IMG/VR virus record: IMGVR_UViG_3300020148_000032 | Reading direction: 5' to 3' (one strand) | Length of the DNA stretch: 64,000 bases | From: a virus | Taxonomy: Duplodnaviria; Caudoviricetes | Shown here: in pieces, positions 19,873-63,868 of the stretch | How positions within the stretch are numbered: position 1 is the stretch's first letter | Layout of the letters: the number at the start of each line of letters is the position of its first letter | Position numbers and translations under genes: made by a program | The notes under the pieces: generated by a model | What the model was told of the DNA's origin: nothing | Databases searched by the model: none | What the model saw: the letters and a program-made list of their open reading frames with translations, nothing else

Positions 19873-20056
19873 ACATTGGAGTGTAATGATGAATTTTGAT
19901 GCTTATTATAATGATTCACCTATTTATCGTTGTAAGAAGTGTGGTAAGCGGAATGTTGTTGTCTTTGGTAATCTCCCTACTGACTCGAATTTTAAGTGGA
20001 AAGAGTAACATCTTTTTGAAACTTTTTAGAAAAATCATCTAAATTGGAGTCTTTTT

Positions 20057-20833
20057 ATGCCTAAATACCACATCTCTATAAATGGAGAGCCTGCAGTTTG
20101 TAGAGCTTTTAAGCGACCTTGCCCAGTAGGTGGAGAACATTTTGATACGATGAAAGATGCTAGAGGTTGGCTGGAATCAAAACTTGAGGCACTTACGATC
20201 ACGTCATTATCAAAGAATCTTGATTCTTATCCATTAGTGATGAAGAATGGAGAGCTTGTGAGAACCGGACTTGTCATGTCTAGTAATTTTATTAAAGAGG
20301 TTGCAGAGAAAAGCGATAAGAATGAGAAGTGGTCTGGAACTTGGGAAGAACTAGAAAACCTTGTCATGAAGAATATGGATAATTGGTCTCCAGGTACTGG
20401 TAGTGTGGATGGGGATGTTCGTTTAGTTCATGTTCCTTCTGAAGGTTTTTATACTAATATTGTAGAAATAAATGATGAGAACAAGCATCTTGTTGAAACT
20501 GTTTGGGAAGCTCGAGTTGAGAAGGAAGATCCGGTACCGATTAGAGTGATCATGGGGGATGAATATGCTCCTGCTCATCATGTGGATGTAGTTCTTTATA
20601 GAGCTGATGTTCTTGCTAAGGATGATGATAGATCAAGTATTGCTGAGTGGGAAATTGTGAGTGTTAATTCTAAACCTGAAGAATTTGTACCTATGCACCC
20701 TAATACTATGAAAAGGAATGCTTCTAATTCTGTAGGTGGAACGTTAAGGGAATACTCTAAAGAACAGTGGGAAGAGTCCGAAAAGTATTGGGATTCTCAT
20801 GTATATGTTCGTCTTAAGAAGCAAGAATTTTAA
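20057..20833 (+). CDS. HCCH-module protein #1 with DUF3228-like C-terminal domain
   Basis: N-term YHISINGEPAVCRA..CPVGGEH; WEARVEKEDPV, VDVVLY, WEIVSV, PMHPNTMKRNA..GG, YW motifs. Confidence 0.8.
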   Translation: MPKYHISINGEPAVCRAFKRPCPVGGEHFDTMKDARGWLESKLEALTITSLSKNLDSYPLVMKNGELVRTGLVMSSNFIKEVAEKSDKNEKWSGTWEELENLVMKNMDNWSPGTGSVDGDVRLVHVPSEGFYTNIVEINDENKHLVETVWEARVEKEDPVPIRVIMGDEYAPAHHVDVVLYRADVLAKDDDRSSIAEWEIVSVNSKPEEFVPMHPNTMKRNASNSVGGTLREYSKEQWEESEKYWDSHVYVRLKKQEF

Positions 20834-20836
20834 AGT

Positions 20837-21628
20837 TTAAGAGGTTGACCTGAGATTTTCAGAATATTTTTGGTAAATTTCTTTACCTATTTTGAAGGAT
20901 TCTGAGGATGCTTTCTCCATAGTTTTCATGATTTTTTGAGCCCATGGGTGATCAGGTTCGGCTTGCAAGAACTTTAAGACTTCCATTCCTACGAGAGGTT
21001 GGAAGTAAACTGCATATATCGCATCTTCGTCCCAATGATAAAGGTTCCCATTAACTGCAGCATCAGGGTGGTCAGAATTTTTCTTGAATTGTAAAGAAAT
21101 ACAACTTTTGAGAAACAAATATTCGCGGCGGACCTTTTTGAAAGGGTTTTTCTCCTCATTTTCTCTTTTAGAGTTACCGAAAGTTTTTCGTGAGTGAGAA
21201 TATAGTGATATACCCTTCTTAGTCTTTTTAGCGAAAGAGTAATGTTTTCTTTCTTTATAGCGAATGTGTTCTAGATCCTCTATAATCGGATCATATGGTA
21301 GAGGTTCGTGATTAGAGCCAAATTTACATGCATTAAATTCAGCATCGTCAAGTATATTTTGCTGTTTCTTAGTGTAAGAATTAAGGTATTTTTGGTTAAA
21401 GTGTTCTGGAAGATAAGTTTCTTCTTTAAGTAGCTTTTTAGAAACTTTGTCCCCTGCTTCTATGTGCTCTTTTAAGTGGACGACTAAGTCAGTAGCATTG
21501 AAGAATGGTTGATCTTTAAACTTGTGTAGTTTGCATCCATCGCATTTAATATAACCACGGTAGTCAGAAATAATGGTAAGGGCTTCGTCTTTGTTAGTGT
21601 AGCGGTGTTGATTTTTTAACCAATCCAT
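20837..21628 (-). CDS. hypothetical protein with N-terminal C2H2-like motif
   Basis: CDGC...HLKEH; AAGGGAG RBS. Confidence 0.65.
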   Translation of the reverse strand: MDWLKNQHRYTNKDEALTIISDYRGYIKCDGCKLHKFKDQPFFNATDLVVHLKEHIEAGDKVSKKLLKEETYLPEHFNQKYLNSYTKKQQNILDDAEFNACKFGSNHEPLPYDPIIEDLEHIRYKERKHYSFAKKTKKGISLYSHSRKTFGNSKRENEEKNPFKKVRREYLFLKSCISLQFKKNSDHPDAAVNGNLYHWDEDAIYAVYFQPLVGMEVLKFLQAEPDHPWAQKIMKTMEKASSESFKIGKEIYQKYSENLRSTS

Positions 21629-21734
21629 TATGGAACTCCCTTACTTGCTATTCATACTTTCATTTTTTCACTATTATTTTATCAAGTTTTTAACGTCATA
21701 CATTGGTATAATAGTAATAAATGCGGAGGTTAAT

Positions 21735-22232
21735 ATGAATGTTTTTCTTGTTGGAAATTCACAAAAAGACCTCGAGTGGGCTAAATCCTTTATTAAAGAA
21801 CACGATGGAGTTCTTATTGAACGGGATAAAGTTTACTCTAATTTGTTTAAATCTGAACCAACAAGTGGGGATATTATACAGAATGAATTAATTTTTGACG
21901 AGATTCTTTATTCTATCTTTGATCTCATGCAAATTAAAGTGGAAACAATTGTTGTTTCTATTTCGCATTTATCTGATGCTTTCTATACTTTTCTTATCAT
22001 GATGAGACAAGCTCTTGATGATTTCCCTATTAATTCTCTTGTTAAAATCCTTTCTGATGGAGAATCTAAGGACGACTTTACTGACCTTGGTGATGATCTT
22101 GTTAAGGTGTATGGATTGCAAATGGGTTATGGAGAAGTCATCGGAGACGTTCCAATTGAAATGAATTTATTTCTTCAAAGTATAGTTATTGATTTTTATC
22201 CCACGTCTTTAAAAGATGTAAAGTTTTCATAG
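21735..22232 (+). CDS. hypothetical protein, possibly a degenerate P-loop kinase fold
   Basis: GGAGG RBS before ATG 21735; TGGTATAAT upstream. Confidence 0.55.
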   Translation: MNVFLVGNSQKDLEWAKSFIKEHDGVLIERDKVYSNLFKSEPTSGDIIQNELIFDEILYSIFDLMQIKVETIVVSISHLSDAFYTFLIMMRQALDDFPINSLVKILSDGESKDDFTDLGDDLVKVYGLQMGYGEVIGDVPIEMNLFLQSIVIDFYPTSLKDVKFS

Positions 22233-24845: not shown

Positions 24846-25087
24846 ATGGAATCTCCATTCGTTGTAAACATTTTACCATTTTAAGCAGCTTAGTTTAAAT
24901 AGTCTCTATCTTTTAATGAGAGATGATGAGTTCCACAGTTTTTGATGTTTTTTATCAAAAATCGATATTTAACAGCTTTTTATCAGCTATAGTAACGCTA
25001 TAGCGTTACTATAGAGCATGTCTAGTAGATGAAAAGTGAGTTACTGTTTAGATAAGTTTTTAAACCTCCCTACATAAGGATTTAATA

Positions 25088-25302
25088 ATGGCTAGAAAAT
25101 TCACATTAATAATGAATCTTATTTAGATCATGTCAAATCAGTTCGATCTAAAGCTATAGAAGATGTAGGTCCCACAAGAATTATTAAAAAATTTGTTGAA
25201 GATTTTAAAGAAAACGGAGAGTAAAAGCCTCTTACTAAGACTCAATCGAGATATGTGCCTGAACGGAAATTGCCTGTTAGACTGCAGTCTCTTGTTAGTT
25301 AG
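25088..25302 (+). pseudogene. relic HCCH-module gene
   Basis: TAGATAA at 25049, AAGGA RBS, ATG GCT AGA AAA TTC then a frameshift into H-I-N-N-E; cysteines missing; in-frame TAA at 25222. Confidence 0.5.
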
Positions 25303-25805: not shown

Positions 25806-25861
25806 AAGTAACATTTTATCAAGAGTAGTTAGATAAATAGTTATGAACATAGGAGAACAAT

Positions 25862-26173
25862 ATGCCAAAATTTCATATTAATAATAGCGGGAACGTAGGT
25901 ATCTGTGAAGCACTACAAGGCAATTGCCCTTTTGGCGGCCCAGAAGATCATTATGATTCTATAGTTTCAGCAGCCCGTGCTTTTGAAAAAGAGATGGAAA
26001 ACCAAGCCTTCTCTCAAATGTCAAATACACAAAAGAATGATCTCTATTCCATTGCTATGGACGGGGATGAGGCTTATCACACGGGGCAATCCGTCCACAG
26101 CAATCCCCACCCTGAGGGCTCTCCGGAGTACGAGGTTTGGCTAGACGCTTTCAATAACCCCTCGGATCGTTAA
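25862..26173 (+). CDS. HCCH-module protein #2
   Basis: KFHINNSGNVGICEA...CPFGG...HY; 3' part is GC-richer. Confidence 0.8.
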   Translation: MPKFHINNSGNVGICEALQGNCPFGGPEDHYDSIVSAARAFEKEMENQAFSQMSNTQKNDLYSIAMDGDEAYHTGQSVHSNPHPEGSPEYEVWLDAFNNPSDR

Positions 26174-26253: not shown

Positions 26254-26685
26254 ATGCCAAAATTTCATATTAACAATAGCGGGACAGTAGGTGTCTGTCA
26301 AGCACTACAAGGCAATTGCCCTTTTGGTGGCGAGGCAGATCATTATCCAACAGCCGCTAAAGCAAGAGTAGCTTATGAACAAAATAAAAACAATAAATCT
26401 ATACCCGCTGTACTAAAATCGTCAATTATTACTGATAAACCAATAACTGAAGATGACTATATGCAGATTTCCGATACTTTTTATGATCTTTCTGAAAAAT
26501 ACGCAATGATTAAAGATAATCCTGCAGGTGAATCAGTGCGAGAAATTTTTGATGAGATTATCACAACTTCTAATCGTTATCGTAAAAATGAAATAGATAT
26601 GTATATTCAGATGGAGTCAAAGACTGGAGAGCCTCGAGTAGCAAAACTACTTAGAGATTATCTTGACTATATAAAGACTTTATAG
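26254..26685 (+). CDS. HCCH-module protein #3
   Basis: RBS+module nearly identical to #2, unrelated C-terminus. Confidence 0.8.
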   Translation: MPKFHINNSGTVGVCQALQGNCPFGGEADHYPTAAKARVAYEQNKNNKSIPAVLKSSIITDKPITEDDYMQISDTFYDLSEKYAMIKDNPAGESVREIFDEIITTSNRYRKNEIDMYIQMESKTGEPRVAKLLRDYLDYIKTL

Positions 26686-26761: not shown

Positions 26762-29026
26762 TTAACTATTAAAAGTTGACGAGAAATCTTCTGGGCTCAT
26801 GAACTTTAGCCCAAGTTTCTTAGCGACCACTGTCTTTGAAGAAGTTGAACTTTCATCTCCAATAATATAAGAAGTATCTTTCTTTGGCGAACTGTGGAAA
26901 ATTCCTCCGTTACTCTCAATATAATCTACCCATGCATTACGATTAGAGAAACCGGGCGGTACACTACCACTAATAGCAAAAGACAATCCGTTAAGAGATG
27001 TTTTGGAGCTCCCTTCAGAACTATCGTCTGTTGATTGTGAAGCTTGTGGAACTGTAAATTCTACTCCATGATCACGAAGTTTCTGAATGAGTGCTGACCT
27101 CATTCTCAACCCATCGTAGATTTTCTTTGCTTTTATATCTCCAAGCCCATCAAGTACTGCTATTTCACTTTCTTTCGCGTTAAGAATTCCATCAATATCT
27201 CCAAAGCGCTTGACAAGCGCTTTGGCAGTAGACGGACCTAGAAGGTCAATATTAAGCGATGGAAGTACTTTAGTAAGTGGTCTTTTCTTTGATAGTTCTA
27301 AATGTTCAAGTATATGTTCAGCGATTTTTTCTCCTAAACGTCGTGGGTTGCCTTGATTAGAGTAACCATAAACACTATTACTTAATTCCTCTTTAGTAAG
27401 AGTATAAAGGTCAGATATATCATTAACCCTGCCTATTTCATTAAAGTGATTAAGTGTAACTTCAGAAAGTTTATCAATGTCTAAGAAGTTCTTACCAACG
27501 GCAGTTTTTAATGCAAAGTAATCTCTTGATGGACAATTAGGGTTATTACAATTAAGGGTTTTCGGTGGCCATACTCCAGCTTCTTCTCTTTTAGCTGAAA
27601 GCTTACCTTTGCACGATGGGCACTCGTTAGGAATTTGTATTTTTTCTGTACCTTCTGGATTTGAAAGTACAGCAACTACTTGAGGAATAATGTCATTAGC
27701 TTTTTCAATAAGAACAATGCTTCCTACTCGAATATCTTTTTGATGAATAAGATTAAAATTATGTAATGAAGCATTGCTAATCTCTGACCCGGCAAGGTTC
27801 ACTGGTTCAACTTTAGCAACTGGAGTTACTCTACCTGATTTACCTACTGTAAGATTAATTCCTATAACTGTAGTTTTTGCTTTCTCTGCAGGGTACTTCC
27901 ATGCTATTTGAGAGACTGGGTGGTGAGAAGTGACCCCACTTTTCTCGTACATTTCACCTTCATTTGATGGTTTAATGACAACACCATCAGTAGGGATAGA
28001 GAAACCAGGTCTGACTTTTCCAAATTCATTAATCGCATCCATTACTTCTTTATTTGTTGAAAGGTTCGTAATAGTAAAAGATAATTGAGTTTCAGTAAGG
28101 TCATCTACACTAAGGAATCCATCATTTGGGCTTAGGTCCTTGAGGTTCTTCATCACTCCGTTTTTAAGAGTTGAATATGTAGAGAATGTGAACTCTACTG
28201 GGTAACCTATTCCTAGTTTGGCTTTTTTGAGAAGCCCGGTTGCAGAATTTCTTGAATTTTTAAAGTGCTCTCCAGTGAGTTTAAATCTTTCATCGTCTGC
28301 TTTTTTAAATTGATCATTAGTGAAGAATAGCTCTCCTCTTACTTCTACTTTTTCTTTTTCCTCTATATAGAGAGGAAGTCCTTGTACTTTTACTGATGGG
28401 TCCTTAATGAGATAAGTTACATCCTCACCTACAGATCCGTCACCTCTTGTGGCAATACGACTAATTTTACCTTCTTTATAGTAAACAGATATCGCTAGAC
28501 CGTCAAGTTTCGCTTGTAATCTAAAACTTGTGGCTCCGTCTTTTCTAGTCTTATCAAGAAAAGACATTAAATCTTCCTCTTTTTTAGCTTTATTGAGGGA
28601 AAGCATTGGTACTTCGTGATGAACAATTTCATCACTGTTAGTTTGTGTACCTAGTGATACGTCACCGTCGAGTAATTTGTACCCGTCTGTCCCTTCTGTA
28701 AACAAATGTTGATACTGACCAGAATCTGAAAGAGAGTGAAGATACGCTTGTTTAGCGTCAAATTCTTCATCACTTAGTTCTGATTCCCCAGAACCTTGAT
28801 AATATTCTTGTGATGCATCTAATAACTCTTTAATGAGATTCTTTACGTCTGATTCTGGTATTTTCTTTTCAACAGTCATTGGTAGAGAGAAACTTTCTTC
28901 ATAGAATGAGCGAGCTTTTTCAATCGTATCAAAATGTTCATCATCAGATCCAAAGGGACATACCCCTGTTGTTACTTTACATAAACCTGATTCTCCAGTT
29001 TGAGTATTAACATGATATTTCGGCAT
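26762..29026 (-). CDS. ligA: NAD-dependent DNA ligase with N-terminal HCCH module (#4)
   Basis: KLDG adenylation motif, TRGDG, EVRGE, DGVVIK, AWKYP, C4 zinc finger, HhH, BRCT. Confidence 0.95.
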   Translation of the reverse strand: MPKYHVNTQTGESGLCKVTTGVCPFGSDDEHFDTIEKARSFYEESFSLPMTVEKKIPESDVKNLIKELLDASQEYYQGSGESELSDEEFDAKQAYLHSLSDSGQYQHLFTEGTDGYKLLDGDVSLGTQTNSDEIVHHEVPMLSLNKAKKEEDLMSFLDKTRKDGATSFRLQAKLDGLAISVYYKEGKISRIATRGDGSVGEDVTYLIKDPSVKVQGLPLYIEEKEKVEVRGELFFTNDQFKKADDERFKLTGEHFKNSRNSATGLLKKAKLGIGYPVEFTFSTYSTLKNGVMKNLKDLSPNDGFLSVDDLTETQLSFTITNLSTNKEVMDAINEFGKVRPGFSIPTDGVVIKPSNEGEMYEKSGVTSHHPVSQIAWKYPAEKAKTTVIGINLTVGKSGRVTPVAKVEPVNLAGSEISNASLHNFNLIHQKDIRVGSIVLIEKANDIIPQVVAVLSNPEGTEKIQIPNECPSCKGKLSAKREEAGVWPPKTLNCNNPNCPSRDYFALKTAVGKNFLDIDKLSEVTLNHFNEIGRVNDISDLYTLTKEELSNSVYGYSNQGNPRRLGEKIAEHILEHLELSKKRPLTKVLPSLNIDLLGPSTAKALVKRFGDIDGILNAKESEIAVLDGLGDIKAKKIYDGLRMRSALIQKLRDHGVEFTVPQASQSTDDSSEGSSKTSLNGLSFAISGSVPPGFSNRNAWVDYIESNGGIFHSSPKKDTSYIIGDESSTSSKTVVAKKLGLKFMSPEDFSSTFNS

Positions 29027-29079
29027 TAAAAAGCTCCTTAAACGTATTCATATTATACTAATCTTTCTATATAAAACTC

Positions 29080-29157: not shown

Positions 29158-30510
29158 TCAAGGAATTGGAGTCAATTTATATTTTTGTCCAGTAATTGCT
29201 CTAGCAAGTTTAGCAATCGCTTCTTTGAATGCTCCGTGTTGAAGTAACATATCCATTGATTGAGTGTTAGCAGCCAGCGCGGCGAGCTTTGGCTGTGAAG
29301 GAACAACAGTAATAATAGGTAATCCACTTACAGCTTGTTTAATCTTATCATCAGAATTTACACCTGCAAGAGATTTGTTCACTACAATACCTATTTTATT
29401 TCGACTAATTCCCATTCCTTGCTTCTCACGAGGCCCAGTTGTTTCCCTAATCCATCGAGTCATAGAGAAGATAGAGTTGATTACAATGTCAGTAACGAAG
29501 ACTATCTGATCTGCCATTGGGTAAGCGACCTTTTCAAGTAATGGGTCGAGATAATTAACGGAAGTGTCAAGAATGATATAATCATATCTTGATTTTAAGT
29601 TTTGCAATAGCTCTACGAAAAATTCAGGTGGAAGATCATTAGCATGACGACCAAATTTAGGAGCTAAAAGTAAATCAATCCCTAACCTATTATTCTTAAT
29701 AATAGTATCATCAATACTTTGCTCACTCATATTTCCCTTATGAATGTTAAGCATCGTTGGAGAATAATTATTAGTAATAAAACCTAACTGTCCATCACGC
29801 ACGTCAAGATCAACTAAAAGAATTTTTAATTTTTCTTTTTCCCTTTTCATCTTTACAGACTCGACAGAAGAAACAGCCATATAGTTAGCAAGAGTAATAG
29901 CAACAGTTGATTTACCAGATCCACCTTTACTAGATGTAACAACAACTATTTGACCAAGGGTACCACTATTATTTACATTTTCTTTAGAAACGTTAAATTC
30001 GGACTGTCTTTCTTCTTCGTCCTCTTTTCTCTTCTTATTGAAATCCTCGGTTGAAGTGTTTCCAGAAATAATATCTGCAGTCTCTGTATTATCAGTTGTT
30101 CTCAAATAAAGAGATATTGCCTCATCTAAATCTTTCTTTGCCTGAGTTTTTGAAATAAAGTAATATTGAATTTGACCGCTATTGCTTGTAGCGTATGCTT
30201 CAGCTTCGATTCTTTCACGAATCATGTCATTGTTTTCCGGGGTGTAATTAATAATACCTAGAAAACAATATGGAGCCATTGAATTAATAAGATTTTCGAA
30301 CTCTTTATTTTCTCCGTTAGGATCAAAGAAAGCATCATGAACAAGAAGTATTTGAACTTCACTATCTATAGTTCCGTCTCCAAGACCAGACCAAAGTTGA
30401 GCGATACTAGGAATTGAACCTTTAAAATCCCACGATGGATTCATTGCTGCAATTGCTTTTCCAATCTTCTCATTCCCAACGAATAATGCTGATGGATTTT
30501 TTTTCGTCAT
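29158..30510 (-). CDS. CpaE/TadZ-like MinD/ParA ATPase
   Basis: SKGGSGKST, LVDLD, YDYIILDT; Tad context. Confidence 0.8.
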   Translation of the reverse strand: MTKKNPSALFVGNEKIGKAIAAMNPSWDFKGSIPSIAQLWSGLGDGTIDSEVQILLVHDAFFDPNGENKEFENLINSMAPYCFLGIINYTPENNDMIRERIEAEAYATSNSGQIQYYFISKTQAKKDLDEAISLYLRTTDNTETADIISGNTSTEDFNKKRKEDEEERQSEFNVSKENVNNSGTLGQIVVVTSSKGGSGKSTVAITLANYMAVSSVESVKMKREKEKLKILLVDLDVRDGQLGFITNNYSPTMLNIHKGNMSEQSIDDTIIKNNRLGIDLLLAPKFGRHANDLPPEFFVELLQNLKSRYDYIILDTSVNYLDPLLEKVAYPMADQIVFVTDIVINSIFSMTRWIRETTGPREKQGMGISRNKIGIVVNKSLAGVNSDDKIKQAVSGLPIITVVPSQPKLAALAANTQSMDMLLQHGAFKEAIAKLARAITGQKYKLTPIP

Positions 30511-30561
30511 ATTAGGGCCTCGTCTTTCAAAAATATAATATATCTTTGGTGGTAGTTAAAA

Positions 30562-31602
30562 CTAGGGTTGTGGAGTTGGAGTAACGCTTGACTCCACAGT
30601 TGGTTCAACTGTAGCTTCAGTAGTTGGCTTGATTGTAGCCTCAACTGTTGGTTTAGTTGTTGGTGTAGTATCAATATCAGTATCAGTGTCTTTTGAAGGG
30701 TTGGTACCTTCACACTCAGTAGTGGCACTCCAGTTGAAGTGATTATTACCGGCTTTATCAATACATCCGTAAAGACCATTAATTGGACGACCATATTTGT
30801 CACGCTCAATGTCTTGGAAAGTGTAATTAGTAATTTCACCTGAATTAGATTCACCAGGCCATATCACACCATTCTCATAAATATTGTAACTAAATAGACC
30901 AGCGTATGAAGCTAATTGAGGTTTATTGTACTCGTTTTGTCTTGGAGAGAGAACAAGTTTAATGCTATTTCCATAACGAGAAACAATATCTTGAAGTAGT
31001 GCTGCATTTTCTGGAGACATACCTACGACATATTGTGAAGTTTGACCAGATTTAGCTTCAGAAGTATCGGCAGCGTTATTTGATGATGCATTATTAAGAT
31101 CAACAGAAGTATCAAGAACTAATACGTTAACAAAAGGGTAGAAAGAACCTTCAGTAGTCGTGACAAGCATATCGAAGTAATAACCACGTTTAATACGTCC
31201 TCCAACAGCATCATCAGCATCTACAGAGAAATTAGTAATAACCCAATTATCTGGCACTCCGACAGATATATCATCAAGGGCTCCAACGTTACTAGATGTA
31301 AGAATGTCGCCAGCTACAAGAGGATACTTAGAATAATAAGCTCCTGATTGAATTTCAGCAATTCCAAAAGATGTAGGAGGCTCAGTTCCGTCAGACGTTA
31401 CTATTGCTGTTAACATGTCTGGAGTAATAAGAGTTCTTGTTGCAACATCTTGATTAATAACATAATAAGTGCTAGTCTGATAAATACTCTGTAAGAAAGT
31501 AAGTGTCCCCACAAACACAAGAACAACTAAAACAGCAATTCCACCAAAAATGAGTTTATTGTTGGTTAAAGAATTCAAGCCTCTACTATTTTTTGCAGCC
31601 AT
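30562..31602 (-). CDS. CpaB/RcpC-like SAF-domain pilus protein with P/T-rich tail
   Basis: N-terminal TM, SAF pattern (LITPDML...PLVAGDILT), AVGGRIKRG.YFD. Confidence 0.75.
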   Translation of the reverse strand: MAAKNSRGLNSLTNNKLIFGGIAVLVVLVFVGTLTFLQSIYQTSTYYVINQDVATRTLITPDMLTAIVTSDGTEPPTSFGIAEIQSGAYYSKYPLVAGDILTSSNVGALDDISVGVPDNWVITNFSVDADDAVGGRIKRGYYFDMLVTTTEGSFYPFVNVLVLDTSVDLNNASSNNAADTSEAKSGQTSQYVVGMSPENAALLQDIVSRYGNSIKLVLSPRQNEYNKPQLASYAGLFSYNIYENGVIWPGESNSGEITNYTFQDIERDKYGRPINGLYGCIDKAGNNHFNWSATTECEGTNPSKDTDTDIDTTPTTKPTVEATIKPTTEATVEPTVESSVTPTPQP

Positions 31603-31655
31603 AGAAAGCGCACCTTTCTCCTTTTGTTTTTATAACAAAAATAATATCACTAAAG

Positions 31656-33247: not shown

Positions 33248-33252
33248 TAAAG

Positions 33253-33870: not shown

Positions 33871-33884
33871 ATATTTCCTTTATC

Positions 33885-41995: not shown

Positions 41996-42036
41996 GAGAA
42001 ATCCTCGATTAATTTTATTTATTTTCTAACTCATTA

Positions 42037-45492: not shown

Positions 45493-45618
45493 TACTTACT
45501 TACCATCCTTGCGTTAAAAATAGAGTACATCACTACTATTTTATCAAAATCGAACGTAGAATTAATATATCAACTTTAAAGGAGTTAGAAAATATTCTAA
45601 CAACAAAGGTAGGTTCTT

Positions 45619-49643: not shown

Positions 49644-49661
49644 GTATACTTACTCCATTTG

Positions 49662-50791: not shown

Positions 50792-50819
50792 AAGAATAGT
50801 TCTTTATCGTAATATAAGT

Positions 50820-50835
50820 TTTTCTATATAGAAAA
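50820..50835. promoter_or_regulatory. palindromic double TAGAAAA motif serving divergent HCCH genes
   Basis: TTTTCTATATAGAAAA, 35 and 33 nt from the starts at 50791 and 50862. Confidence 0.65.
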
Positions 50836-51886: not shown

Positions 51887-53173
51887 TTAAAAATCAACAT
51901 ATGGCGACCCTTCACCAACATATTCTTTATTTTTGAGTCGATTAAGAAGATGTTTCTTTTGAGCTCTACTAAGTTTGAGTTTACGAGGTTTTGCCTCTAA
52001 AAGAGCATTAATTCCTCTTAAAGAAAGGTGAGGGCTTGTGACAAAAGAATCAATGACTTCTCTATCGTCAGAGTGTAATACTATTTGTCTTACATGAGCA
52101 TTGTGAAAGTTAGGGTTTTTTGATAATTGTATTAGTCTTTTCTTTGCGAAATTTTTGTAATTTTTATCTGTATGAGATAGGCTCATCTCAATAGCAAACC
52201 TTTCAACATAACTAGAACTTATATCCCTAGTTTTTTCGGCTAGCTCGTCAGCAGCTTTAGAATCATTAAGATAATATGATTCAAGTATTAAATCAGCTCG
52301 CGAAGAATTTTTTACTATTTTCTCTGTTAAAGAGTTATTTGAGTGACCATTACGTTTTAATCTTAATACCTCGTAAGAAAGATCATAATTATCGGCCAAT
52401 TCTTTATCAGTTACAATTTGAGTGAAAGCTTCTATATCTTTTTCAGAACCGTCTTTCAAGATATAATAACCAGCTTCACTCACTCCGTTTTCTTTCATTT
52501 TTGTAAGAACTTCTTTTCTTTTCTCATCATTAAGAGTTTTAAGATATGCTTTTAGCTTGTACGGACGAGTATAGTCATCTTCAGTAAACTCTTTACCGTT
52601 AGAGTACTCATCGGCGAGTTCTTGTATAGACTTGTTTTCAAATTCTTCATCAATTTCTCTATTATATTGATCAAGATAATCTTTCATTGTTGCAGTAAAG
52701 AGAACTCTTCTCCCTTGTGCTGGTGAGAGATTCTTGTTTCCTATGAGTCTTAAAGGGTTCACTATTTCTGGATTGTTAAGGTAATCGTCAAAAGTTTTTT
52801 CGTCTTCTGCATAAAATATTTCTGCATTGAGCTCTCCTGTAGCTTCAGAAATTCTGTATCGAACCTCAGAATAAAGATCTTCATTATCTAGTACTCCTTT
52901 TTTGTGAAGTGCTGATTCTATTTCTTTGAGTATTATTATTTTTTGGACATAGGTGAGAGAATTCCACGAAGTTTTAATCCATGGCTTGAGAGCGTTATGA
53001 GTTTGTAAAATTTTTCCTTCGTACTCATCATTCAATCTTTGCATGTATTGAACATTAGCCTCTTGAGCATTATTTGCATCAAAATGTAACTCTTCTCCCC
53101 CAAGCGGACAATTCACTTTAGTGGCTTTACAAAGGGTGATTTCGCCTTTTTTATTAACGTGGTATTTAGACAT
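51887..53173 (-). CDS. HCCH-module protein #9
   Basis: KYHVNKKGEITLCKATKVNCPLGG...HF; helical C-terminal region. Confidence 0.8.
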   Translation of the reverse strand: MSKYHVNKKGEITLCKATKVNCPLGGEELHFDANNAQEANVQYMQRLNDEYEGKILQTHNALKPWIKTSWNSLTYVQKIIILKEIESALHKKGVLDNEDLYSEVRYRISEATGELNAEIFYAEDEKTFDDYLNNPEIVNPLRLIGNKNLSPAQGRRVLFTATMKDYLDQYNREIDEEFENKSIQELADEYSNGKEFTEDDYTRPYKLKAYLKTLNDEKRKEVLTKMKENGVSEAGYYILKDGSEKDIEAFTQIVTDKELADNYDLSYEVLRLKRNGHSNNSLTEKIVKNSSRADLILESYYLNDSKAADELAEKTRDISSSYVERFAIEMSLSHTDKNYKNFAKKRLIQLSKNPNFHNAHVRQIVLHSDDREVIDSFVTSPHLSLRGINALLEAKPRKLKLSRAQKKHLLNRLKNKEYVGEGSPYVDF

Positions 53174-53318
53174 AAAGTTCTCCTTAAAGATATTGTCTTT
53201 TCTATATAAAAAAAACTTTAATGAACTTAAATTATTTTTTTAAAATACCCCTTATTCTTATTCCTTCTAATAAGTATTTAGAAAAGGATTCATCAAATGA
53301 ATTATAAGGAGTGAATTT

Positions 53319-54221
53319 ATGAGTAACAAATTTCATATAAGCCCTGATGGTAATGTGCGCCAATGCCGAGCACAAACACCTGAGTCATGTAGAGCTACTG
53401 TTAGTAGATTCAAAGAACATTTTGACACTAAAGAAGAGGCAAGAGAGGGCTATGAAGCGAAAATGAAGAAGCTTTACCCGCAGGCAGGGATAGTTAAGAG
53501 AGCAACCGCCCCTAATCCCACTGCACCGAAAAAGTACAAGTTTAAATTTAATGATGAAGACCTTAAAGAAATAGCAGAACTTGAAGGTGAAATTAAAAAC
53601 ATAAAGGATATTATTCAGGAAGAAAAAGAAATCATGTATGGTTTCCAAAAAAGCGAGTTCTCCATTATTAAAGTAACTTCTCCAAAAGCTTTAGTGAGAA
53701 GAACTAAACATATAAAACCTAGTGTTAAGCACCCTGAAGATGTAAAAAAAGCTTATATAAACCTTGCAACCGCATTAAAAGATATTAAAGATTTACCTAA
53801 AAGAGATGTAACTCCTGACGAAATAAGGAACACTTTTAAAAGATTGAAGGAAAGTTCAGAAATCGCTCAGAATTCTTTGAAAACAGATTTACTTTCCGAA
53901 TTTAACTTTAGAAAGCTTCCTGAAATCCTTACTAATACACATAATTCTCGCACTTACTTTAGCCAAGATTATAAAATAACAAAAATGTTAGATCGAATTG
54001 GATTTGATATCCATCGGGGTTTCCCATTGGGGACTACACATAGAAACGTTGAAGATTTCGTAGAAGAATATCTAGAAAAAGAAAGAATTAAACGGAAAGC
54101 TCGTGAGGCTCGAAAGCAAACGATTACAGACATTCTTAAAGAAGAAGCCGAGAGTGTAGCAAAGGAAGAGAAAAAGAATAGAAGAGACAATATTTTGTCA
54201 AGAATCTTTAATAGATCTTAA
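53319..54221 (+). CDS. HCCH-module protein #10
   Basis: KFHISPDGNVRQCRAQTPESC...HFDTKEEAREGYE. Confidence 0.8.
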   Translation: MSNKFHISPDGNVRQCRAQTPESCRATVSRFKEHFDTKEEAREGYEAKMKKLYPQAGIVKRATAPNPTAPKKYKFKFNDEDLKEIAELEGEIKNIKDIIQEEKEIMYGFQKSEFSIIKVTSPKALVRRTKHIKPSVKHPEDVKKAYINLATALKDIKDLPKRDVTPDEIRNTFKRLKESSEIAQNSLKTDLLSEFNFRKLPEILTNTHNSRTYFSQDYKITKMLDRIGFDIHRGFPLGTTHRNVEDFVEEYLEKERIKRKAREARKQTITDILKEEAESVAKEEKKNRRDNILSRIFNRS

Positions 54222-56966: not shown

Positions 56967-57166
56967 TTTAACTCCTAAAATATTCGTATTTATATTTTAT
57001 ATGAAAGTTGAAAATAAGTCAAATGGTTCTCTCTTAGATAAGAATAAAGAAAATTTTAATTACTTAAATAATATTAAATTTTAATTGATAGTTTTTCTTT
57101 TATTTATATAACATAAAAACACAATCTCTATATTTAAACATTTAGAAAATATAAAGAGGAGGTATT

Positions 57167-57547
57167 ATGCCAAGATATCATGTGAATTTAGAAACTGGAG
57201 AGCCAGGGATTTGTAAAGCAGAAATAAAATGCCCTTTCGGAGAGGAAAAACTTCATTTTGATTCTTCTGCTGATGCACGAAAAAGTTACGAGTTAAGCCA
57301 AAAGGGGATTCCTGGTTTCTTACACAAAGAAATTATTAGTGGGAAAACTAATAGAGAGATACTTGCTGCGAGGTACCCTGGAGATATGGTTGATTACATT
57401 TTTAAGGGAGATGAAGATATTACTCTTGAGAATGCTTTTGAAGCAGCACATTGGCTTGAAACCGATTATGCTAACCAGTTGAGTTATCAAGAGGATATGG
57501 AAAGACTTTATCAAGAAGAATACGATAAACTTAACCCTAATTACTAA
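57167..57547 (+). CDS. HCCH-module protein #11
   Basis: RYHVNLETGEPGICKAEIKCPFG...HF...ARKSYE. Confidence 0.8.
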   Translation: MPRYHVNLETGEPGICKAEIKCPFGEEKLHFDSSADARKSYELSQKGIPGFLHKEIISGKTNREILAARYPGDMVDYIFKGDEDITLENAFEAAHWLETDYANQLSYQEDMERLYQEEYDKLNPNY

Positions 57548-57590
57548 ATCTTTTTAGAAAAGATTGTGTTATTTTTATTAGTGGAGAAGA

Positions 57591-58418
57591 ATGACTACTT
57601 ATCACATTAATCCTAAAGGTGAGCTCACTTCTTGTAAAGCTGAATACAGGTGCCCTTTTGAAGGAGTATCTTTACACTTAGAGGCGGAATCTTTAGCTGA
57701 CGCTTATTCGCAATATGAGGAGAAGCTTCGTTCTTTTTATGAGAAAGAGATAAATAACACTACGGCAGAAGACTCTGAAAGAATTAGTGAAGAATTTTAT
57801 GAAAACGGCGAAGTGACCGTTGATGGATATCTCTTTAAAAAAGTATATAATGAAAGAAGTTATTCTTACCAGGCAGTATATTCGGTACCTAATAGCATTT
57901 ATGATGAAGAAATAGTCGTTAATGCTAATGACATAAACAATTACGAATCTGCTTATATTAAGTCTCCTTATAAAGAATTACAACGAATGTCTCTAGAAAA
58001 TCTTAATGGTGAAGAATCAATGGGCTTGAGTATCTTAAAAACTGTAAAAGAGCTAAAAGAGAATAGTGGAAAGTATTTCCCCCAACAAGATGAACTTTTA
58101 GAAGAATACAAGAAAATAGAATCGCAAACGGAAGCATATATTCCTGAATATGATCTAAAGTTAGAAAGAACTGGTTATTCTAGTCCAGAAACTTATGAAG
58201 CCGAAGATGATGAAAACATTGCATATTTACGAGTTCGTTGGGGTGTTGCTAGTCTTAAAATAATACGAAAAGATCAATCCTCTGACGATCAAAAGAACGA
58301 AGTTCAATATGATAAAGTCATTGGAGATTCTCTTCAAGGGAGTTTTGATGATACAACACAAAGAAATATTTTCTTGACTGAAGCTTCTTTATATTTTAAA
58401 AATGTGCGTAAGACTTAA
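57591..58418 (+). CDS. HCCH-module protein #12
   Basis: YHINPKGELTSCKAEYRCPF....H. Confidence 0.8.
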   Translation: MTTYHINPKGELTSCKAEYRCPFEGVSLHLEAESLADAYSQYEEKLRSFYEKEINNTTAEDSERISEEFYENGEVTVDGYLFKKVYNERSYSYQAVYSVPNSIYDEEIVVNANDINNYESAYIKSPYKELQRMSLENLNGEESMGLSILKTVKELKENSGKYFPQQDELLEEYKKIESQTEAYIPEYDLKLERTGYSSPETYEAEDDENIAYLRVRWGVASLKIIRKDQSSDDQKNEVQYDKVIGDSLQGSFDDTTQRNIFLTEASLYFKNVRKT

Positions 58419-58453
58419 TTAGAAAAGTTTATAACTATTTGTTGGAGAATATT

Positions 58454-59275
58454 GTGTCAAAATTTCATATTAATAGTAAAGGTGAACCTGGAATTTGCAA
58501 AGCAACAAGCGGTAGTTGTCCATTCGGTTCTGTCGAAGAACACTATTCTTCTAAGGAAGAAGCAACTCTTGCATATGAGAAAGCTCAAGAAGCAAACCTT
58601 GTCTCTACTTTGAAAAGAATTGCTGATTCAGATGATCCGGGGCCGCGTCGCATGGCGGCCAAGAACCATCGCACCCCAACAGAAGTACTGACACAGCTGG
58701 CATCGGACAGGGACATGTACGTGCGCCGGGCGGTGGCCGGGAACCCGAGTGCTCCAGCAGAGGTGCGGGTACAGTTGGAGTCGGATAAGGAGGCGACCGT
58801 GCGCACTGGCGTGGCCTACAACCCCAATACCCCCGCGGAGACGCTGGAAGCGCTGGCGTCGGACAGGTCCGCGGACGTGCGCCACTGGGTGGCCCGGAAC
58901 CCGATCACCCCAGTGGAGGTGTTGGTGGTGTTGTCGTCGGACGAGGACAGTGGCGTGCGCTGGTACGTGGCCCAGCACCCGAACGCCCCAGCGGAATCAA
59001 TGCCACTGCTGGCATCGGATGAGAACAGATGGGTGCGGCGGGCGGTGGCCGAGAACCCGAGGGCTCCCATCTCCGTTGTTGCGGAGCTCATGGGTGATAG
59101 CAGCCCTCTTATCGCATCTACTGCCCGCAATCGGTTCACCTTGTGGGCGCAGAAATCACTTGATCTTGGTTCTGTTCCCACTGGGCAACTCATTGACAGG
59201 TTGGTGGCGCTGAAGGCGTGGGAGTTGGACCCCAAGGACCCGGCTGTCACTGCTGCTGTTGTGTTGTGCAACTGA
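58454..59275 (+). CDS. HCCH-module protein #13 fused to GC-rich LRV/HEAT-like repeats
   Basis: GTG 58454 after GGAG RBS; about seven 24-aa repeats L.SD....VR..VA.NP..P. Confidence 0.85.
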   Translation: MSKFHINSKGEPGICKATSGSCPFGSVEEHYSSKEEATLAYEKAQEANLVSTLKRIADSDDPGPRRMAAKNHRTPTEVLTQLASDRDMYVRRAVAGNPSAPAEVRVQLESDKEATVRTGVAYNPNTPAETLEALASDRSADVRHWVARNPITPVEVLVVLSSDEDSGVRWYVAQHPNAPAESMPLLASDENRWVRRAVAENPRAPISVVAELMGDSSPLIASTARNRFTLWAQKSLDLGSVPTGQLIDRLVALKAWELDPKDPAVTAAVVLCN

Positions 59276-59507
59276 GCACCGAATACTGTGTGCCGGCATG
59301 GCCAGATGCACCGCCCCTAAGTTCGCCATCACTATTTACTTCGTTTGCTAATTGTATTATCTTTACTCAAGAATATCTTTCAAACCCAGAAAGTATTTAC
59401 CAATTTTAAAATGAGAAGGATTAACAAGCTCTTCTAATAGGGATATTATTTCATACCTTTCGTAAGAATGATTTAGAAAAGTTTGTAACTATTTATTGGA
59501 GAATATT

Positions 59508-60200
59508 ATGTCAAAATTTCATATTAACACTAAAGATGGAACTGTAGGTCTTTGTAAAGCAACTAAAGGTCAATGCCCTTTTGGTGGAGAAAGTGAACAT
59601 TATCCTTCAATTGTAGAGGCGGCTAAAGGTTACGAATTAATGATGAATTCTGAAACTATTAATACTGTTTCTAAGAATGAAATGAAAATACCTTTTGTTT
59701 CTGTTGAAAATTACGAAGTATCTAAAGAAACGCTTAGAGGTCGAGATTTTGATGATTTTATTCATTATGACTCTCAAAGAGCTTCTGATTATCTTAACTT
59801 AAGAAATAGCGCTGGTCCAGTGGTTACTCATAAAGAGGCGAGAGATATAGCGTATACAATAAAATTGATAAGAGAAAACCCTGCTTTAAGAAGAAAATTC
59901 TCTGAAGAAACCCTAGGAAATGAAGATGATTTTTATGATATTTCAGTTCAATTCATAAAAGACAACTATAAAGACACTTTATATCATACTCTTTATAGTT
60001 CTAAAGAATTAGAAGAAAATATTTGGGAGAATCTTAATAATGCAATAAATGCTAAAAGGCCTTTTGGCTTCCCAGAGGATGAAATGACTCGTTATCAACA
60101 AAATGCTAATGAAAAAGGTTATGTTGAAGCACTAAAGACACTTACAGGTCTAGATGAAACTGAAGTTCGAAGAATTGCTTTAAATAAAGAATACCTTTAA
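59508..60200 (+). CDS. HCCH-module protein #14
   Basis: leader nearly identical to #13; KFHINTKDGTVGLCKATKGQCPFGG...HY. Confidence 0.8.
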   Translation: MSKFHINTKDGTVGLCKATKGQCPFGGESEHYPSIVEAAKGYELMMNSETINTVSKNEMKIPFVSVENYEVSKETLRGRDFDDFIHYDSQRASDYLNLRNSAGPVVTHKEARDIAYTIKLIRENPALRRKFSEETLGNEDDFYDISVQFIKDNYKDTLYHTLYSSKELEENIWENLNNAINAKRPFGFPEDEMTRYQQNANEKGYVEALKTLTGLDETEVRRIALNKEYL

Positions 60201-60756: not shown

Positions 60757-61440
60757 TTAACTATAAACTTGCTTTTTTATTACTTTAAGAACAAGGTCTA
60801 TCTCAGAATAGCTGAGGTTTCGTCCGAAGATATCAAATTTGTTATCCTCAACCATTTCATCAAACTTTTTTACAGAAATGAGAACATCGTTTTTAGTTAT
60901 TTTATTAAGGACACATATTTCAAACACAAGCTTTCTAGTGTAAGGTGTGTCGATTTCTGAATCAGTTCTAACAAGAGACTTTAATTGTGCATTCTTGTCC
61001 GAGATATATTCTTTTACTTGGTCAATAGTTTTAACTGATGGAACGTTACCTATCTTAGGGAAATGAGTATCAACGATAAGATTACGTGAATTTGAACCGA
61101 GGATTGGTTCGGAATGATATGAAAAACCTAATCTTTCAAATTCTTCCATATCATTAATGTCAGTATCTTTAATAGTAAAAATTATTGTAGAAGTTTCTGA
61201 TTGATCAAGTTTTGCCTTAGGGAACTTTAAGAAAATATCATTGATAAGTTGATACTTTCCCTCTTCAGTAATTTCCTTTTTCTGAGAGGAAAGAATATTA
61301 TCATGCATTCCTTTCTCGAAAGCGACATATGCTTCATTTGAAGTAGAATAATGTTGATCATCTGAGCCAAATGGACATTGCCCTTTAGTTGCATTGCATT
61401 TGGAAACGTTACCTTTATCGTTGATATGAAACTTTGACAT
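60757..61440 (-). CDS. HCCH-module protein #15
   Basis: ATG 61440 after AGGAG; KFHINDKGNVSKCNATKGQCPFG...HY. Confidence 0.8.
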   Translation of the reverse strand: MSKFHINDKGNVSKCNATKGQCPFGSDDQHYSTSNEAYVAFEKGMHDNILSSQKKEITEEGKYQLINDIFLKFPKAKLDQSETSTIIFTIKDTDINDMEEFERLGFSYHSEPILGSNSRNLIVDTHFPKIGNVPSVKTIDQVKEYISDKNAQLKSLVRTDSEIDTPYTRKLVFEICVLNKITKNDVLISVKKFDEMVEDNKFDIFGRNLSYSEIDLVLKVIKKQVYS

Positions 61441-61487
61441 TCGAACTCCTCTGATATAATCTTTTCTATAAAGCAAGAATATAAGGA

Positions 61488-62207
61488 TTATCTAAGAGAT
61501 TCAATATATTCTTTTAATGCTCCAGGTACTGACCAATCATCAGTATATCTTTCACCGTTGATGATTATTGTAGGAACTTGTGAAATGTTATTTTTGCTAC
61601 TTAAATCTTCGGAAGCAACAATCCATTTCTGGAATGGTCTATCTTCAAATTTTTCATAAGTGGACTGGTCAATATTGGCAGAAATAGCAAGTTCAACAAG
61701 TTCTTCATCCGTTAGTCCCGCTGTCCCTTCAGCAGGAGCGTTATCATAAAGAACAGAAAGGTAATCAAACATCTTTTCTGGTTCGTCATTTTGTACTACA
61801 ACAAGAGCATTAACAGCGCGTGTAGAGTATTGAGTCCCAAGAGATTGAGAGTCAAGGAACGTCATTGGGTGCCATTTAAGGAATAGAGTTCCATTATTAA
61901 CGAGAGCGTCAATATCTTCATCATTAATATTCATAAAATAAGTACAAGCAATACACATGGGATCTTCATATAAATCCATTACAACTGGAGCTGATGAATC
62001 TCCGTAAAGAAGAGCTCCGTCATCTGATGTATTGAGGGGGATTTCTTCAGGGGCGAAATCCGCAATAGGAGTTTTATTGGCTTCAGTTATAATAAATGCG
62101 ACTATTGAAGAGAAAACAAAGAAAACTAGAGAAATTAAAACAAATCGTAACGCTATTTTCTTTCTTCTGTTGTATGTTTCAATATTATTTTTAGAACTTT
62201 TTGACAT
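61488..62207 (-). CDS. membrane-anchored DsbA-like thioredoxin-fold protein
   Basis: TM, LYEDPMCIAC, FLD...YSTRA, cis-Pro VPTIIING. Confidence 0.85.
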   Translation of the reverse strand: MSKSSKNNIETYNRRKKIALRFVLISLVFFVFSSIVAFIITEANKTPIADFAPEEIPLNTSDDGALLYGDSSAPVVMDLYEDPMCIACTYFMNINDEDIDALVNNGTLFLKWHPMTFLDSQSLGTQYSTRAVNALVVVQNDEPEKMFDYLSVLYDNAPAEGTAGLTDEELVELAISANIDQSTYEKFEDRPFQKWIVASEDLSSKNNISQVPTIIINGERYTDDWSVPGALKEYIESLR

Positions 62208-62245
62208 GGAGACCCCTTATTTTATCTTGTTATTATTTTAACAAT

Positions 62246-62731
62246 TTATTCAACAGGGTATTTCTCATAACCTTTGGTTTGATTTTCAATAATTCGAGGG
62301 TTAGAATTCAAAGTAGTAAGTTCAACAGTAAGATCAGAATTAAATTTTGAGTCACTTGTCACTTTAAAATCATAGATTCTGTAATCATCAGTGCATATCT
62401 CGCCATACACTGTAAAATTAAGAGATAATGTATTATCAGAATATATTGCGTTAGTGAGAATTGGCGGACATGAACCAGACCCACCACTTCTTACATAAAC
62501 AGTTTTTAAATCCTCACTAAGTATAAAATATTCACCCCAATGAACTTCTCCTCCATTAAGTTCATCAAGTCTTGAAATGTAAGAGTCTTGTTCATATTGT
62601 GCAGTAAGATTACCTTGCTCTAAAGTGTCAGTTAATTTCATTGGTCTGTCTGTTGCTACTTTTACAACACAGAAACCAAGTATAACAAAACTCATGATGA
62701 GAATTGAAGCAATAGTGTATTTGTATTTCAT
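62246..62731 (-). CDS. exported/membrane-anchored protein with a probable disulfide
   Basis: signal/TM, GSGSCPP...ICTDD. Confidence 0.65.
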   Translation of the reverse strand: MKYKYTIASILIMSFVILGFCVVKVATDRPMKLTDTLEQGNLTAQYEQDSYISRLDELNGGEVHWGEYFILSEDLKTVYVRSGGSGSCPPILTNAIYSDNTLSLNFTVYGEICTDDYRIYDFKVTSDSKFNSDLTVELTTLNSNPRIIENQTKGYEKYPVE

Positions 62732-62791
62732 ACTCTTACTCCCCGAAAATCTTTATAAAAATATCGACTTGCGGGGAGTAAGTTGACTAAT

Positions 62792-63775
62792 TTAATCAGT
62801 AGTATCGTAAGTGATAGAGATAGTACCTTCGTCCGCATCATATTGATGGCGAATGAAGTTATATCTGTTGTAATATGTATAGAGGTTATTTACATCATCA
62901 AGTGTTAAACCGAATTCTGTAATTTTATCCTTATCAAGAGTAATCTTTGATTGTGAATAACCCCTAAATCTTCCTGATGGGTAAACTGTATTATTATTTT
63001 CTATAATTTCTTTTTGTAAATCTTCTAATGTGAGGTTTTTGCTGTCAGCGATATCTTTAGCCTTTAAAAGAGCGGCATCATAAGGAGAATTCTTCCTTAA
63101 ATCCTCCTTAGCAAAATCTGGTAGTTTTGGATTTAATACCATTTCTTTGTTTCTATAACCGGCTTCGTACATATCTCCAAGCATTTCAGGGGTAAGGTTC
63201 TCATTTTGATAAAGTCCAGAGTAAAGTTTATTTCTGACTTGTTCATCGTTTTCTTCGTTAATCTTTTTGAAAATGACAGGAAGATATTTTTCAGGAAATT
63301 TAGTAAGCTCATACCAATCTCGACCATCAAGTTTAATATTTAAATAAACAACATTTGGATCAATTTTCCCGGAAGCAATAACATCCCACTTGAACTCATC
63401 TTGTTGATATAAGAAGAAGTCTTGACGAACTGAATCACTAATTCTATTATTAGGATTTCTTAAAGCGCCTTTCATTTGAGTTCTACTAAGGAGATTCTTA
63501 TCTTTAATATGTTCGTCACCAATATAATTTTGACCATCGATAGTTCTGAAGGTACCTCTGAACATATAGTCAGTTTTTAGTTTCACTCTTAACTCATCAG
63601 GAGTGTACTCTATTTCTCTATTAGCAAACCCACCGTCTTGATTAAGTCTCTCGTAATGTTCACGGGCTGCTTCTTTCGTATCAAAATGGTCAGCAGCTCC
63701 ACCAAAAGGGCAAGGTCGTGTTCGCGCTCGGCAAGCGCCCGGCTCGCCGTTATTATTAACGTGGTATCTTGGCAT
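62792..63775 (-). CDS. HCCH-module protein #16
   Basis: RYHVNNNGEPGACRARTRPCPFGG...HFDTKEAAREHYE. Confidence 0.8.
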   Translation of the reverse strand: MPRYHVNNNGEPGACRARTRPCPFGGAADHFDTKEAAREHYERLNQDGGFANREIEYTPDELRVKLKTDYMFRGTFRTIDGQNYIGDEHIKDKNLLSRTQMKGALRNPNNRISDSVRQDFFLYQQDEFKWDVIASGKIDPNVVYLNIKLDGRDWYELTKFPEKYLPVIFKKINEENDEQVRNKLYSGLYQNENLTPEMLGDMYEAGYRNKEMVLNPKLPDFAKEDLRKNSPYDAALLKAKDIADSKNLTLEDLQKEIIENNNTVYPSGRFRGYSQSKITLDKDKITEFGLTLDDVNNLYTYYNRYNFIRHQYDADEGTISITYDTTD

Positions 63776-63868
63776 TATTACTCCAATATAAAAGTGGGTA
63801 TATATACTTATCTATACAAAATAAAATATTTTTTTGTTAGAAAATTTAATAACTTTAGGAGATCATAT

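Follow-up and report, generated by a model that had tools for sequence, protein, structure and literature searches.

Late promoters of phage T4 read TATAAATA and are recognised with gp55. Kayvirus late promoters, TGTTATATTA, have a long -10 box and no -35 (PMC7698491); those of SPO1, CGTTAGA(N17-19)GATATT, are read by gp34 with gp33 (PMC3601020), and those of jumbo phage AR9, AACA-(6N)-T(A/G)+1, by a sigma-less phage multisubunit polymerase (PMC5312081). For SigN (ZpdN) of the Bacillus subtilis plasmid pBS32, the promoter -10 reads TAGATAAA, TAGATATAA or AGATATAA (PMC6751061, Table 2), a -35 TTTACGTTT is needed and +1 lies 16 nucleotides (nt) after the T of TAGA (PMC6751061); the pBS32 record has the published sigN promoter string 94 nt ahead of its annotated sigma gene. 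Here we describe a short box, TAGA(A/T)A(A/G), upstream of genes that encode a common N-terminal head, named HCCH, in a 64-kb window (the whole stretch of DNA analysed) of a 437-kb element, IMG/VR record IMGVR_UViG_3300020148_000032, and in ~0.9 Mb of related metagenomic loci that were fetched. The box is very probably a stand-alone promoter, and the full statement, in which it is served by a dedicated, non-housekeeping reader, was given a probability of about 0.6 from the sequence evidence set out below.

Position, specificity and conservation of the box

The window, with a guanine-cytosine (GC) content of ~35-36%, contained 17 HCCH genes, whose alignment revealed a common N-terminal head of ~45 residues with the pattern M-x-K-(Y/F)-H-(I/V)-N-x2-G-x4-C-x-A-x4-C-P-F-G-x3-H. 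H5, G10, C15 and H28 were invariant among the 17 N-termini and the second Cys was present in nearly all of them. No Pfam model matched the head, and the cargoes behind it were unrelated, comprising DUF3228, LRV/HEAT repeats, a ligase-like protein and unknowns. Genes were taken from a simple gene call, and the word TAGA(A/T)A(A/G) was scored in the zone 20-50 nt upstream of their starts. It was detected before 16/17 HCCH genes and before 1/66 other open reading frames (ORFs) (Fisher p = 5.5e-15), the latter being a TAGAAAG that overlapped the Shine-Dalgarno region. The possibility that the motif is equally common before non-HCCH genes, raised in an earlier note on this DNA as a reason to abandon the idea of a regulon, was thus not borne out, and the 16 sites which that note had placed upstream of the 17 HCCH starts agreed with the sequence in every coordinate, strand and distance. 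All 16 boxes were on the coding strand, and the actual range from box to start was 24-43 nt. The 7-mer occurred 78 times in the whole window, compared with 79.9 expected, and this lack of excess indicated that the enrichment was positional and not compositional. Thirteen of the 16 sites were TAGAAAA, two were TAGATAA and one was TAGAAAG. Column counts from -4 to -1 bore out the T- or TA-rich bases described ahead of the motif, with T(-4) in 12/16, A(-3) in 11/16, T(-2) in 11/16 and T/A(-1) in 16/16 sites, and gave the window consensus (T/A)TAGAAAA.

The sequences around the boxes were otherwise dissimilar. Mean identity of the 45-nt flanks of the 16 sites was 0.36, against 0.33 expected from base composition, with the exception of the recent duplicate pair at 58420 and 59474 (flank identity 0.71). 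Since the 7-mer was kept amid unrelated flanks, simple hitch-hiking with gene duplication was excluded. Flank context nevertheless separated the 16 sites from the other 62 copies of the word, with leave-one-out scores of 3.4 and -11.6 bits respectively (p = 1.9e-8). Downstream of the box, with the T of TAGA numbered 0, a second signal was seen, as 12/16 sites had T at +12 and 12/16 had A at +13. The dinucleotide TA at these two positions, which gives the layout TAGAnA-(6N)-TA, was found at 10/16 sites and at 5/62 of the remaining window copies of the word (p = 1.2e-5), and any pyrimidine-purine step at 13/16 and 14/62. Bacterial and phage transcription starts usually look like this, a purine after a pyrimidine ~6 nt past a -10-type box; Kayvirus and AR9 late promoters are documented to have such a layout, and the step seen here fits a start ~6 nt past the box.

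The description of the motif as lacking a conserved -35 box was confirmed. In the 40 nt ahead of the box, TTGACA with at most one mismatch was present at 1/16 sites of the window and 14/92 of the relatives, at scattered positions, and TTTACG, also with at most one mismatch, at 3/16 window sites (distances 15, 27 and 36) and 10/92 in relatives. No conserved column was observed upstream of -2 in the alignments of the window or of the relatives, and the sole conserved block ran from -2 to +6. The hexamer TAGAAA/TAGATA ended in A, not T, at 16/16 sites; thus the boxes displayed neither of the features by which housekeeping sigma70/sigma-A promoters are recognised, a -35 TTGACA 16-18 bp upstream and T at the end of the -10.

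Relatives were sampled from public metagenome contigs with a degenerate DNA pattern lying wholly inside the HCCH coding sequence, so that the sampling was blind to the upstream region. The 112 fetched loci, on contigs of up to 727 kb, had a GC of 0.28-0.58. Some of them had non-HCCH genes in common with the window, including GyrA-like (43% identity), GyrB-like (37%), YpsA-type (51%), PilT-like ATPase and DsbA-like genes, which identified these loci as real relatives. Scans of IMG/VR with the ligase-like and GyrA-like proteins and the HCCH coding pattern gave 0 matches, and tblastn with the HCCH heads returned no genuine match in cultured phages or plasmids. Upstream of the relatives' HCCH genes, the top enriched 6-mers were all pieces of (C)GTTAGA(T/G/A)A. 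After stratification by GC, TTAGA(A/G/T)A preceded 31/62 HCCH genes and 1/159 controls in one stratum and 40/77 and 2/225 in another (GC 0.48-0.62; p = 2e-19 and 6e-26). The relatives' consensus was (G)TTAGAnA, with T(-1) in 88% and G(-2) in 58% of 104 aligned sites; positions 9-12 were G-poor and pyrimidine-rich, and positions 13-14 were 84% purine in the class with a well-separated Shine-Dalgarno site. Among 842 non-HCCH ORFs of the loci, a well-placed box was found before only 9, of which at least 5 proved to be HCCH variants that the regular expression had overlooked.

The presence of the box followed the position of the gene in its operon. A promoter is predicted to be kept where a transcription unit must begin and to be dispensable inside operons. 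At loci with GC of at least 0.40, the box was present before 82% of the HCCH genes that stood at divergent junctions. For those with a co-directional gene ahead of them the share fell with the gap, from 67% at 60 nt or more to 50% at 25-60 nt and 17% below 25 nt. The lone exception in the window, the gene at 26254, was confirmed to be box-less and the second of a tandem pair, as the earlier note had it, and fits this rule.

Elements at GC 0.25-0.33 carried TTAGAnA before 1/33 HCCH genes. At the equivalent place, TGATAT(T/A) preceded 24/33 HCCH genes (73%) compared with 22/172 controls (13%, p = 8e-12); T(-1) was found at 96% of these sites, which stood at 93-100% of unit heads and at 0% of positions inside operons. 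These elements included contigs binned with a 'Clostridiales' metagenome-assembled genome (MAG). The members of this low-GC lineage (GC 0.28-0.33) were L113-L147 (contigs of G001), L003, L015, L019, L041 and others, on contigs of up to 330 kb. The type of box was not set by GC alone, as the window (GC 0.36) has TAGAAAA and contigs of the low-GC lineage at GC 0.34-0.36 have GATATT. Constant regulon membership with a changed box is what a private, co-evolving reader would produce.

Box sites and neighbouring genes in the window

From the left, the first box (TAGAAAA, 20027..20033, +) was located 30 nt from HCCH gene 20057-20833 with the DUF3228 cargo, and the second (TAGATAA, 25830..25836, +) 32 nt from HCCH gene 25862-26173. 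The following HCCH gene of this tandem pair, 26254-26685, had no box and only a 17-nt leader in common with 25862. The HCCH-tagged ligase-like gene 26762-29026 had the weakest site, a TAGAAAG at 29063..29069 (-), 43 nt from its start, where a perfect TATAAT was situated 12 nt downstream of the box. TAGAAAA at 42022..42028 (-) and at 45586..45592 (+) each lay 33 nt from their genes, 41438-41995 and 45619-46527. Two divergent TAGAAAA boxes, 50820..50826 (-) and 50829..50835 (+), were 2 nt apart and formed one perfect 16-nt palindrome, TTTTCTATATAGAAAA; the former lay 35 nt from HCCH gene 50390-50791, the head of a minus-strand run into the gyrB-like gene 47514-49643, and the latter 33 nt from HCCH gene 50862-51686. 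Further to the right, TAGAAAA boxes were found at 53198..53204 (-), 31 nt from 51887-53173; at 53279..53285 (+), 40 nt from 53319-54221; and at 57143..57149 (+), 24 nt from 57167-57547. The box at 57555..57561 (+, TAGAAAA) began 8 nt after the stop of that preceding HCCH gene and 36 nt from gene 57591-58418. It was followed by TAGAAAA at 58420..58426 (+), 34 nt from gene 58454-59275 (GTG start, LRV/HEAT repeats), and by the recent duplicate of this unit, with TAGAAAA at 59474..59480 (+), 34 nt from gene 59508-60200. The last three sites were TAGAAAA at 61462..61468 (-), 28 nt from 60757-61440; TAGATAA at 63808..63814 (-), 39 nt from 62792-63775; and TAGAAAA at 63838..63844 (+), 31 nt from the HCCH gene that starts at 63869 and runs past the window end (63869->64000).

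Beyond these genes, a relic unit was detected at 25049..25224 (+), consisting of the box TAGATAA (25049-25055) and a decayed HCCH-like start, 'KIHINNES...'. Its start-codon position was TAG and its Cys residues were gone, and it had the best flank score among the non-HCCH copies of the word. It is probably a decayed 18th member of the HCCH family that has retained its box.

The window also carried replication and repair genes (GyrA-like 43048-45492, GyrB-like 47514-49643, RadA-like, RarA-like and ligase-like), a block for a Tad/type-IV-like pilus and transfer (29158-37983) and numerous small genes of no assigned function. An extra TAGAAAA was observed in 38060-38100 (-), where it occupies the 7-nt loop of a hairpin with a T-run behind it. 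The Flp-like pilin gene at the head of the pilus operon, 37699-37983, lies ~100 nt downstream of this copy. The copy may have arisen by chance within a terminator, or may mark an overlap of terminator and promoter that ties the pilus genes to the regulon. A boxed HCCH gene stood directly upstream of a gyrB-like gene on the same strand both in the window (47514-50826, -) and in the relative L037 (4886-8310); the GyrB-like protein of L037 was 37% identical to that of the window, and the HCCH cargoes ahead of the two gyrB-like genes were unrelated. Between the two genes of the window, a 265-codon open frame without any ATG, GTG or TTG was found at 49665-50459 (-), with CxxC zinc-ribbon repeats and no Pfam match. 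It shares ~70 nt with the 3' end of HCCH gene 50390-50791, read in a different frame, and stops shortly ahead of the gyrB-like gene. It could be a pseudogene, the cargo of this HCCH gene cut off by a frameshift, or the product of a programmed shift.

Genes without the HCCH head that had a gap ahead of them carried ordinary promoter boxes, such as TTGACA-N17-TATAAT (10905-11348) and TTGACA-N17-TAGAAT (1580-1762). TAAAAT boxes were also frequent before such genes, in some cases directly preceded by TG or TTGA. The element therefore has at least two promoter classes.

Readings of the box and the search for its reader

The favoured reading is that (T/A)TAGAAAA in the window and (G)TTAGAnA in relatives would be a core -10-type element that heads HCCH-led transcription units without a -35 partner. 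The predicted first transcribed base is a purine 13 (+/-1) nt downstream of the T of TAGA, ~6 nt past the box, which would give leaders of 11-30 nt with an ordinary GGAG ribosome site. Candidates for the putative reader are a divergent sigma factor, a protein that appropriates sigma and a second polymerase of the element; a separate specificity factor seems most likely, because the box has A at the key T(-7) of sigma-A and the other genes use TTGACA/TA(A/T)AAT. The tagged proteins would then be made as one regulon, and the box that they have in common suggests that they are co-expressed at one stage.

Three other roles of the box were considered and rejected. If it were a -35 element, a -10 at 17-19 bp downstream would overlap the conserved GGAG, and the distance from box to ATG varies from 24 to 43 nt. 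If it were an upstream element with the real -10 at box+12, a T would be needed in sixth place of the hexamer starting there, and this was present in only 3/10 sites. A palindromic operator was dismissed as the palindrome existed at one site pair only.

The reader itself was sought in the window, in the fetched loci and in three HCCH-bearing genomes (two MAGs and the cultured actinobacterium Nesterenkonia alba DSM 19423), and the outcome of this search is the first of several points that weigh against the favoured reading. Neither a sigma factor nor a polymerase was found with Pfam (~50 window proteins) or PHROGs (20). When 13 bacterial sigma ORFs and a profile built from them were run with phmmer and hmmsearch against the ORFs of the window and loci, no hit was better than E = 0.04, and phmmer with pBS32 SigN (NZ_CP020103) gave none better than E = 0.08 in the same DNA. 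SPO1 gp27, gp28, gp33 and gp34 had no match at E < 0.01 in the window and fetched loci. Matches to PF04542 (sigma70 region 2) in the three genomes were never on HCCH contigs. No extra beta-prime gene was detected either, as PF00623 matched nothing but the host rpoC in G001 and G002 and had no match in G003, and all large ORFs of the window were assigned to functions other than split beta/beta-prime. Clustering of all loci ORFs for a conserved neighbour returned only families of one over-sampled gut lineage. The earlier note had proposed a short dedicated promoter read by an element-encoded sigma factor or RNA polymerase, and had called for a search for the corresponding genes. The promoter half of the proposal gained support from family specificity, conservation across GC, the fixed pyrimidine-purine step and the placement at unit heads, but its second half did not, with no sigma or polymerase gene in the window, in the loci or on HCCH contigs of the three genomes. 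These negatives are weak, covering 64 kb of a 437-kb element and a small part of each relative; phage sigma factors are often unrecognisable by sequence.

The remaining points concern the box. TAGAAAA occurred 33 times in the window, so the word alone cannot suffice. The initiator step of the relatives, compared with other copies of the word, was only moderately significant (p = 0.016 and 0.009). Depletion of TAnAAT, the sigma-A-type -10, upstream of HCCH genes was not significant in the window (5/16 vs 15/30, p = 0.35), and AT-rich DNA yields many chance sigma-70 matches; some boxes may therefore have a host-type promoter upstream of them. Finally, five HCCH genes of Nesterenkonia alba had no well-placed box and instead a common 20-nt leader, acaggagtacaggaacag. 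These genes were located on contigs C18 and C20 (loci L116, L119, L122, L126, L128 and L131, GC ~51%), and this cultured organism could be a tractable system for studying the HCCH tag.

The lack of any sigma or polymerase gene in the accessible HCCH-bearing DNA is also what would be seen if the box were read by the host RNA polymerase holoenzyme, an unlikely explanation but the strongest of the rivals. The box would be a weak -10 or extended -10 variant used with an activator or sigma-appropriating protein of the element, or would be served by a host alternative sigma, and no private sigma or polymerase would be involved. T4 MotA/AsiA and Mu C are examples of such element-encoded proteins. The box does share its TA..A. 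shape with the TAAAAT -10 boxes of the element itself, and TGATATW of the low-GC lineage resembles the Firmicute extended -10 (TGnTAT..). However, A replaced the key T of the last hexamer position in 16/16 window sites (and in the 104 relative sites, there by the definition of the match), neither a conserved -35 nor an activator-type upstream site was observed, the box preceded <1% of the other genes in the same elements, and it was constant in elements whose hosts evidently differ (GC 0.34-0.58).

An action on RNA is less probable still. According to this explanation, transcripts start further upstream and the box is an element of their 5' leader, such as the site of a translational regulator, an endoribonuclease or a stabiliser. 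Its invariable coding-strand orientation within 24-43 nt of the start codon would suit such a site, chance-level sigma-70-like matches were present upstream of several boxes, and the tandem boxes at 57555 and 58420 came right after the previous stop, where read-through transcripts would contain them. But it was the distance to the pyrimidine-purine step that was fixed, while that to the Shine-Dalgarno site and ATG varied over those 24-43 nt. The divergent junctions, above all that of 50826/50829 with its boxes 2 nt apart, leave little room for another promoter. In addition, HCCH genes within operons mostly lacked the box (17% vs 82%), which would not be expected if every tagged mRNA depended on it for translation.

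That the box does no more than mark a mobile 'box-RBS-tag' cassette (RBS, ribosome-binding site), as a passenger of duplication or a recombinational junction for cargo shuffling with no role in expression, is very hard to credit: the similarity of the duplicate 58420 and 59474 units does begin at the box, the decayed relic retains it and the cargo varies behind a conserved tag, but the flanks were at random identity save in one pair around an invariant 7-mer, the 25862/26254 duplication left the box out, its presence followed operon position, and its persistence across elements of GC 0.34-0.58 requires selection on the word itself.

A bolder extension of the stand-alone promoter reading can be put forward only tentatively. 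Box, ribosome site and HCCH tag might constitute a portable expression-and-targeting cassette, served by an orthogonal factor or polymerase that lies beyond current sigma and polymerase profiles and co-evolves with the box, TTAGAnA giving way to TGATATW from one lineage to another of these uncultured elements of 0.3-0.7 Mb. If so, these elements would possess a private transcription channel for tagged accessory enzymes, including the ligase-like protein and the head gene of the gyrB-like run. Should the favoured reading itself be true, the box would provide a sequence handle with which to list the whole regulon in any such element, and the reader would be findable as the gene whose clades follow the two box classes. 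The predicted start sites could be checked by metatranscriptomes at single-base resolution, and a candidate orthogonal promoter/factor pair would be at hand. The tagged proteins would act together in time, which would narrow the possible purpose of the tag.

Comparison with known dedicated promoters

The nearest match in sequence was SigN of pBS32, whose -10 contains both the TAGATAA variant of the window and the GATATA of the low-GC lineage. Set against a SigN-type -10, (T)AGATA(T/A)AA, two boxes and the relic read TAGATAA and 13 boxes read TAGAAAA. There is also a likeness in organisation: in pBS32 the private sigma of an extrachromosomal element drives a plasmid-borne regulon with a gyrase-like operon among its members, and in the window the gyrB-like run has a boxed HCCH gene at its head. 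The differences are that most boxes are TAGAAAA, that the -35 TTTACGTTT is absent, that +1 is predicted at 13 and not 16 nt, and that the regulon here is defined by a common protein tag. As a separate observation, the accessory genes of the window (675-1145, 33253-33870, 61488-62207 and 43048-49643) parallel the gene content of pBS32 (L161, L162) in gene type, the types in common being nucleoside 2-deoxyribosyltransferase-like, RusA-like, thioredoxin-fold, two topoisomerase subunits and ligase.

With SPO1, the likeness is that the two HCCH boxes equal the two halves of the late consensus, as CGTTAG and GTTAGA ranked among the top 6-mers upstream of HCCH genes and GATATT is used by the low-GC lineage. 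However, each half stands alone at the -10 position here, and the bipartite TTAGA-N16-20-GATAT occurred as a single copy within the window and in 1/235 of the regions upstream of HCCH genes. AR9 late promoters are similar in having a short box, six unspecified bases and T followed by an initiating purine (here TAGAnA-(6N)-T-A), and AR9 too is a giant element with its own replication genes; the box sequence differs, and no split beta/beta-prime genes were seen in the window.

The analogy with T4 late promoters drawn in the earlier note held for architecture and failed for sequence, which is closer to the SigN -10. Like the T4 and Kayvirus promoters, the box would be a single long -10-type element without -35, with a start predicted ~6 nt downstream and a dedicated class of genes. 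Unlike them, TAGAAAA agrees with TATAAATA at 5/8 positions, the consensus matches neither TATAAATA nor TGTTATATTA, and the genes served are a tagged family of accessory enzymes instead of virion and lysis genes; no gp55- or gp34-type gene was seen in the accessible DNA.

We therefore file the box as one that works like a -10-only private promoter and is not a member of the SigN, SPO1, T4, Kayvirus or AR9 regulons. Dedicated short promoters with a private sigma or polymerase are known already, in phages and in one plasmid, pBS32. What sets the present box apart is that it is tied to a protein tag and not to a functional module, and that the tie holds across very divergent uncultured giant elements.

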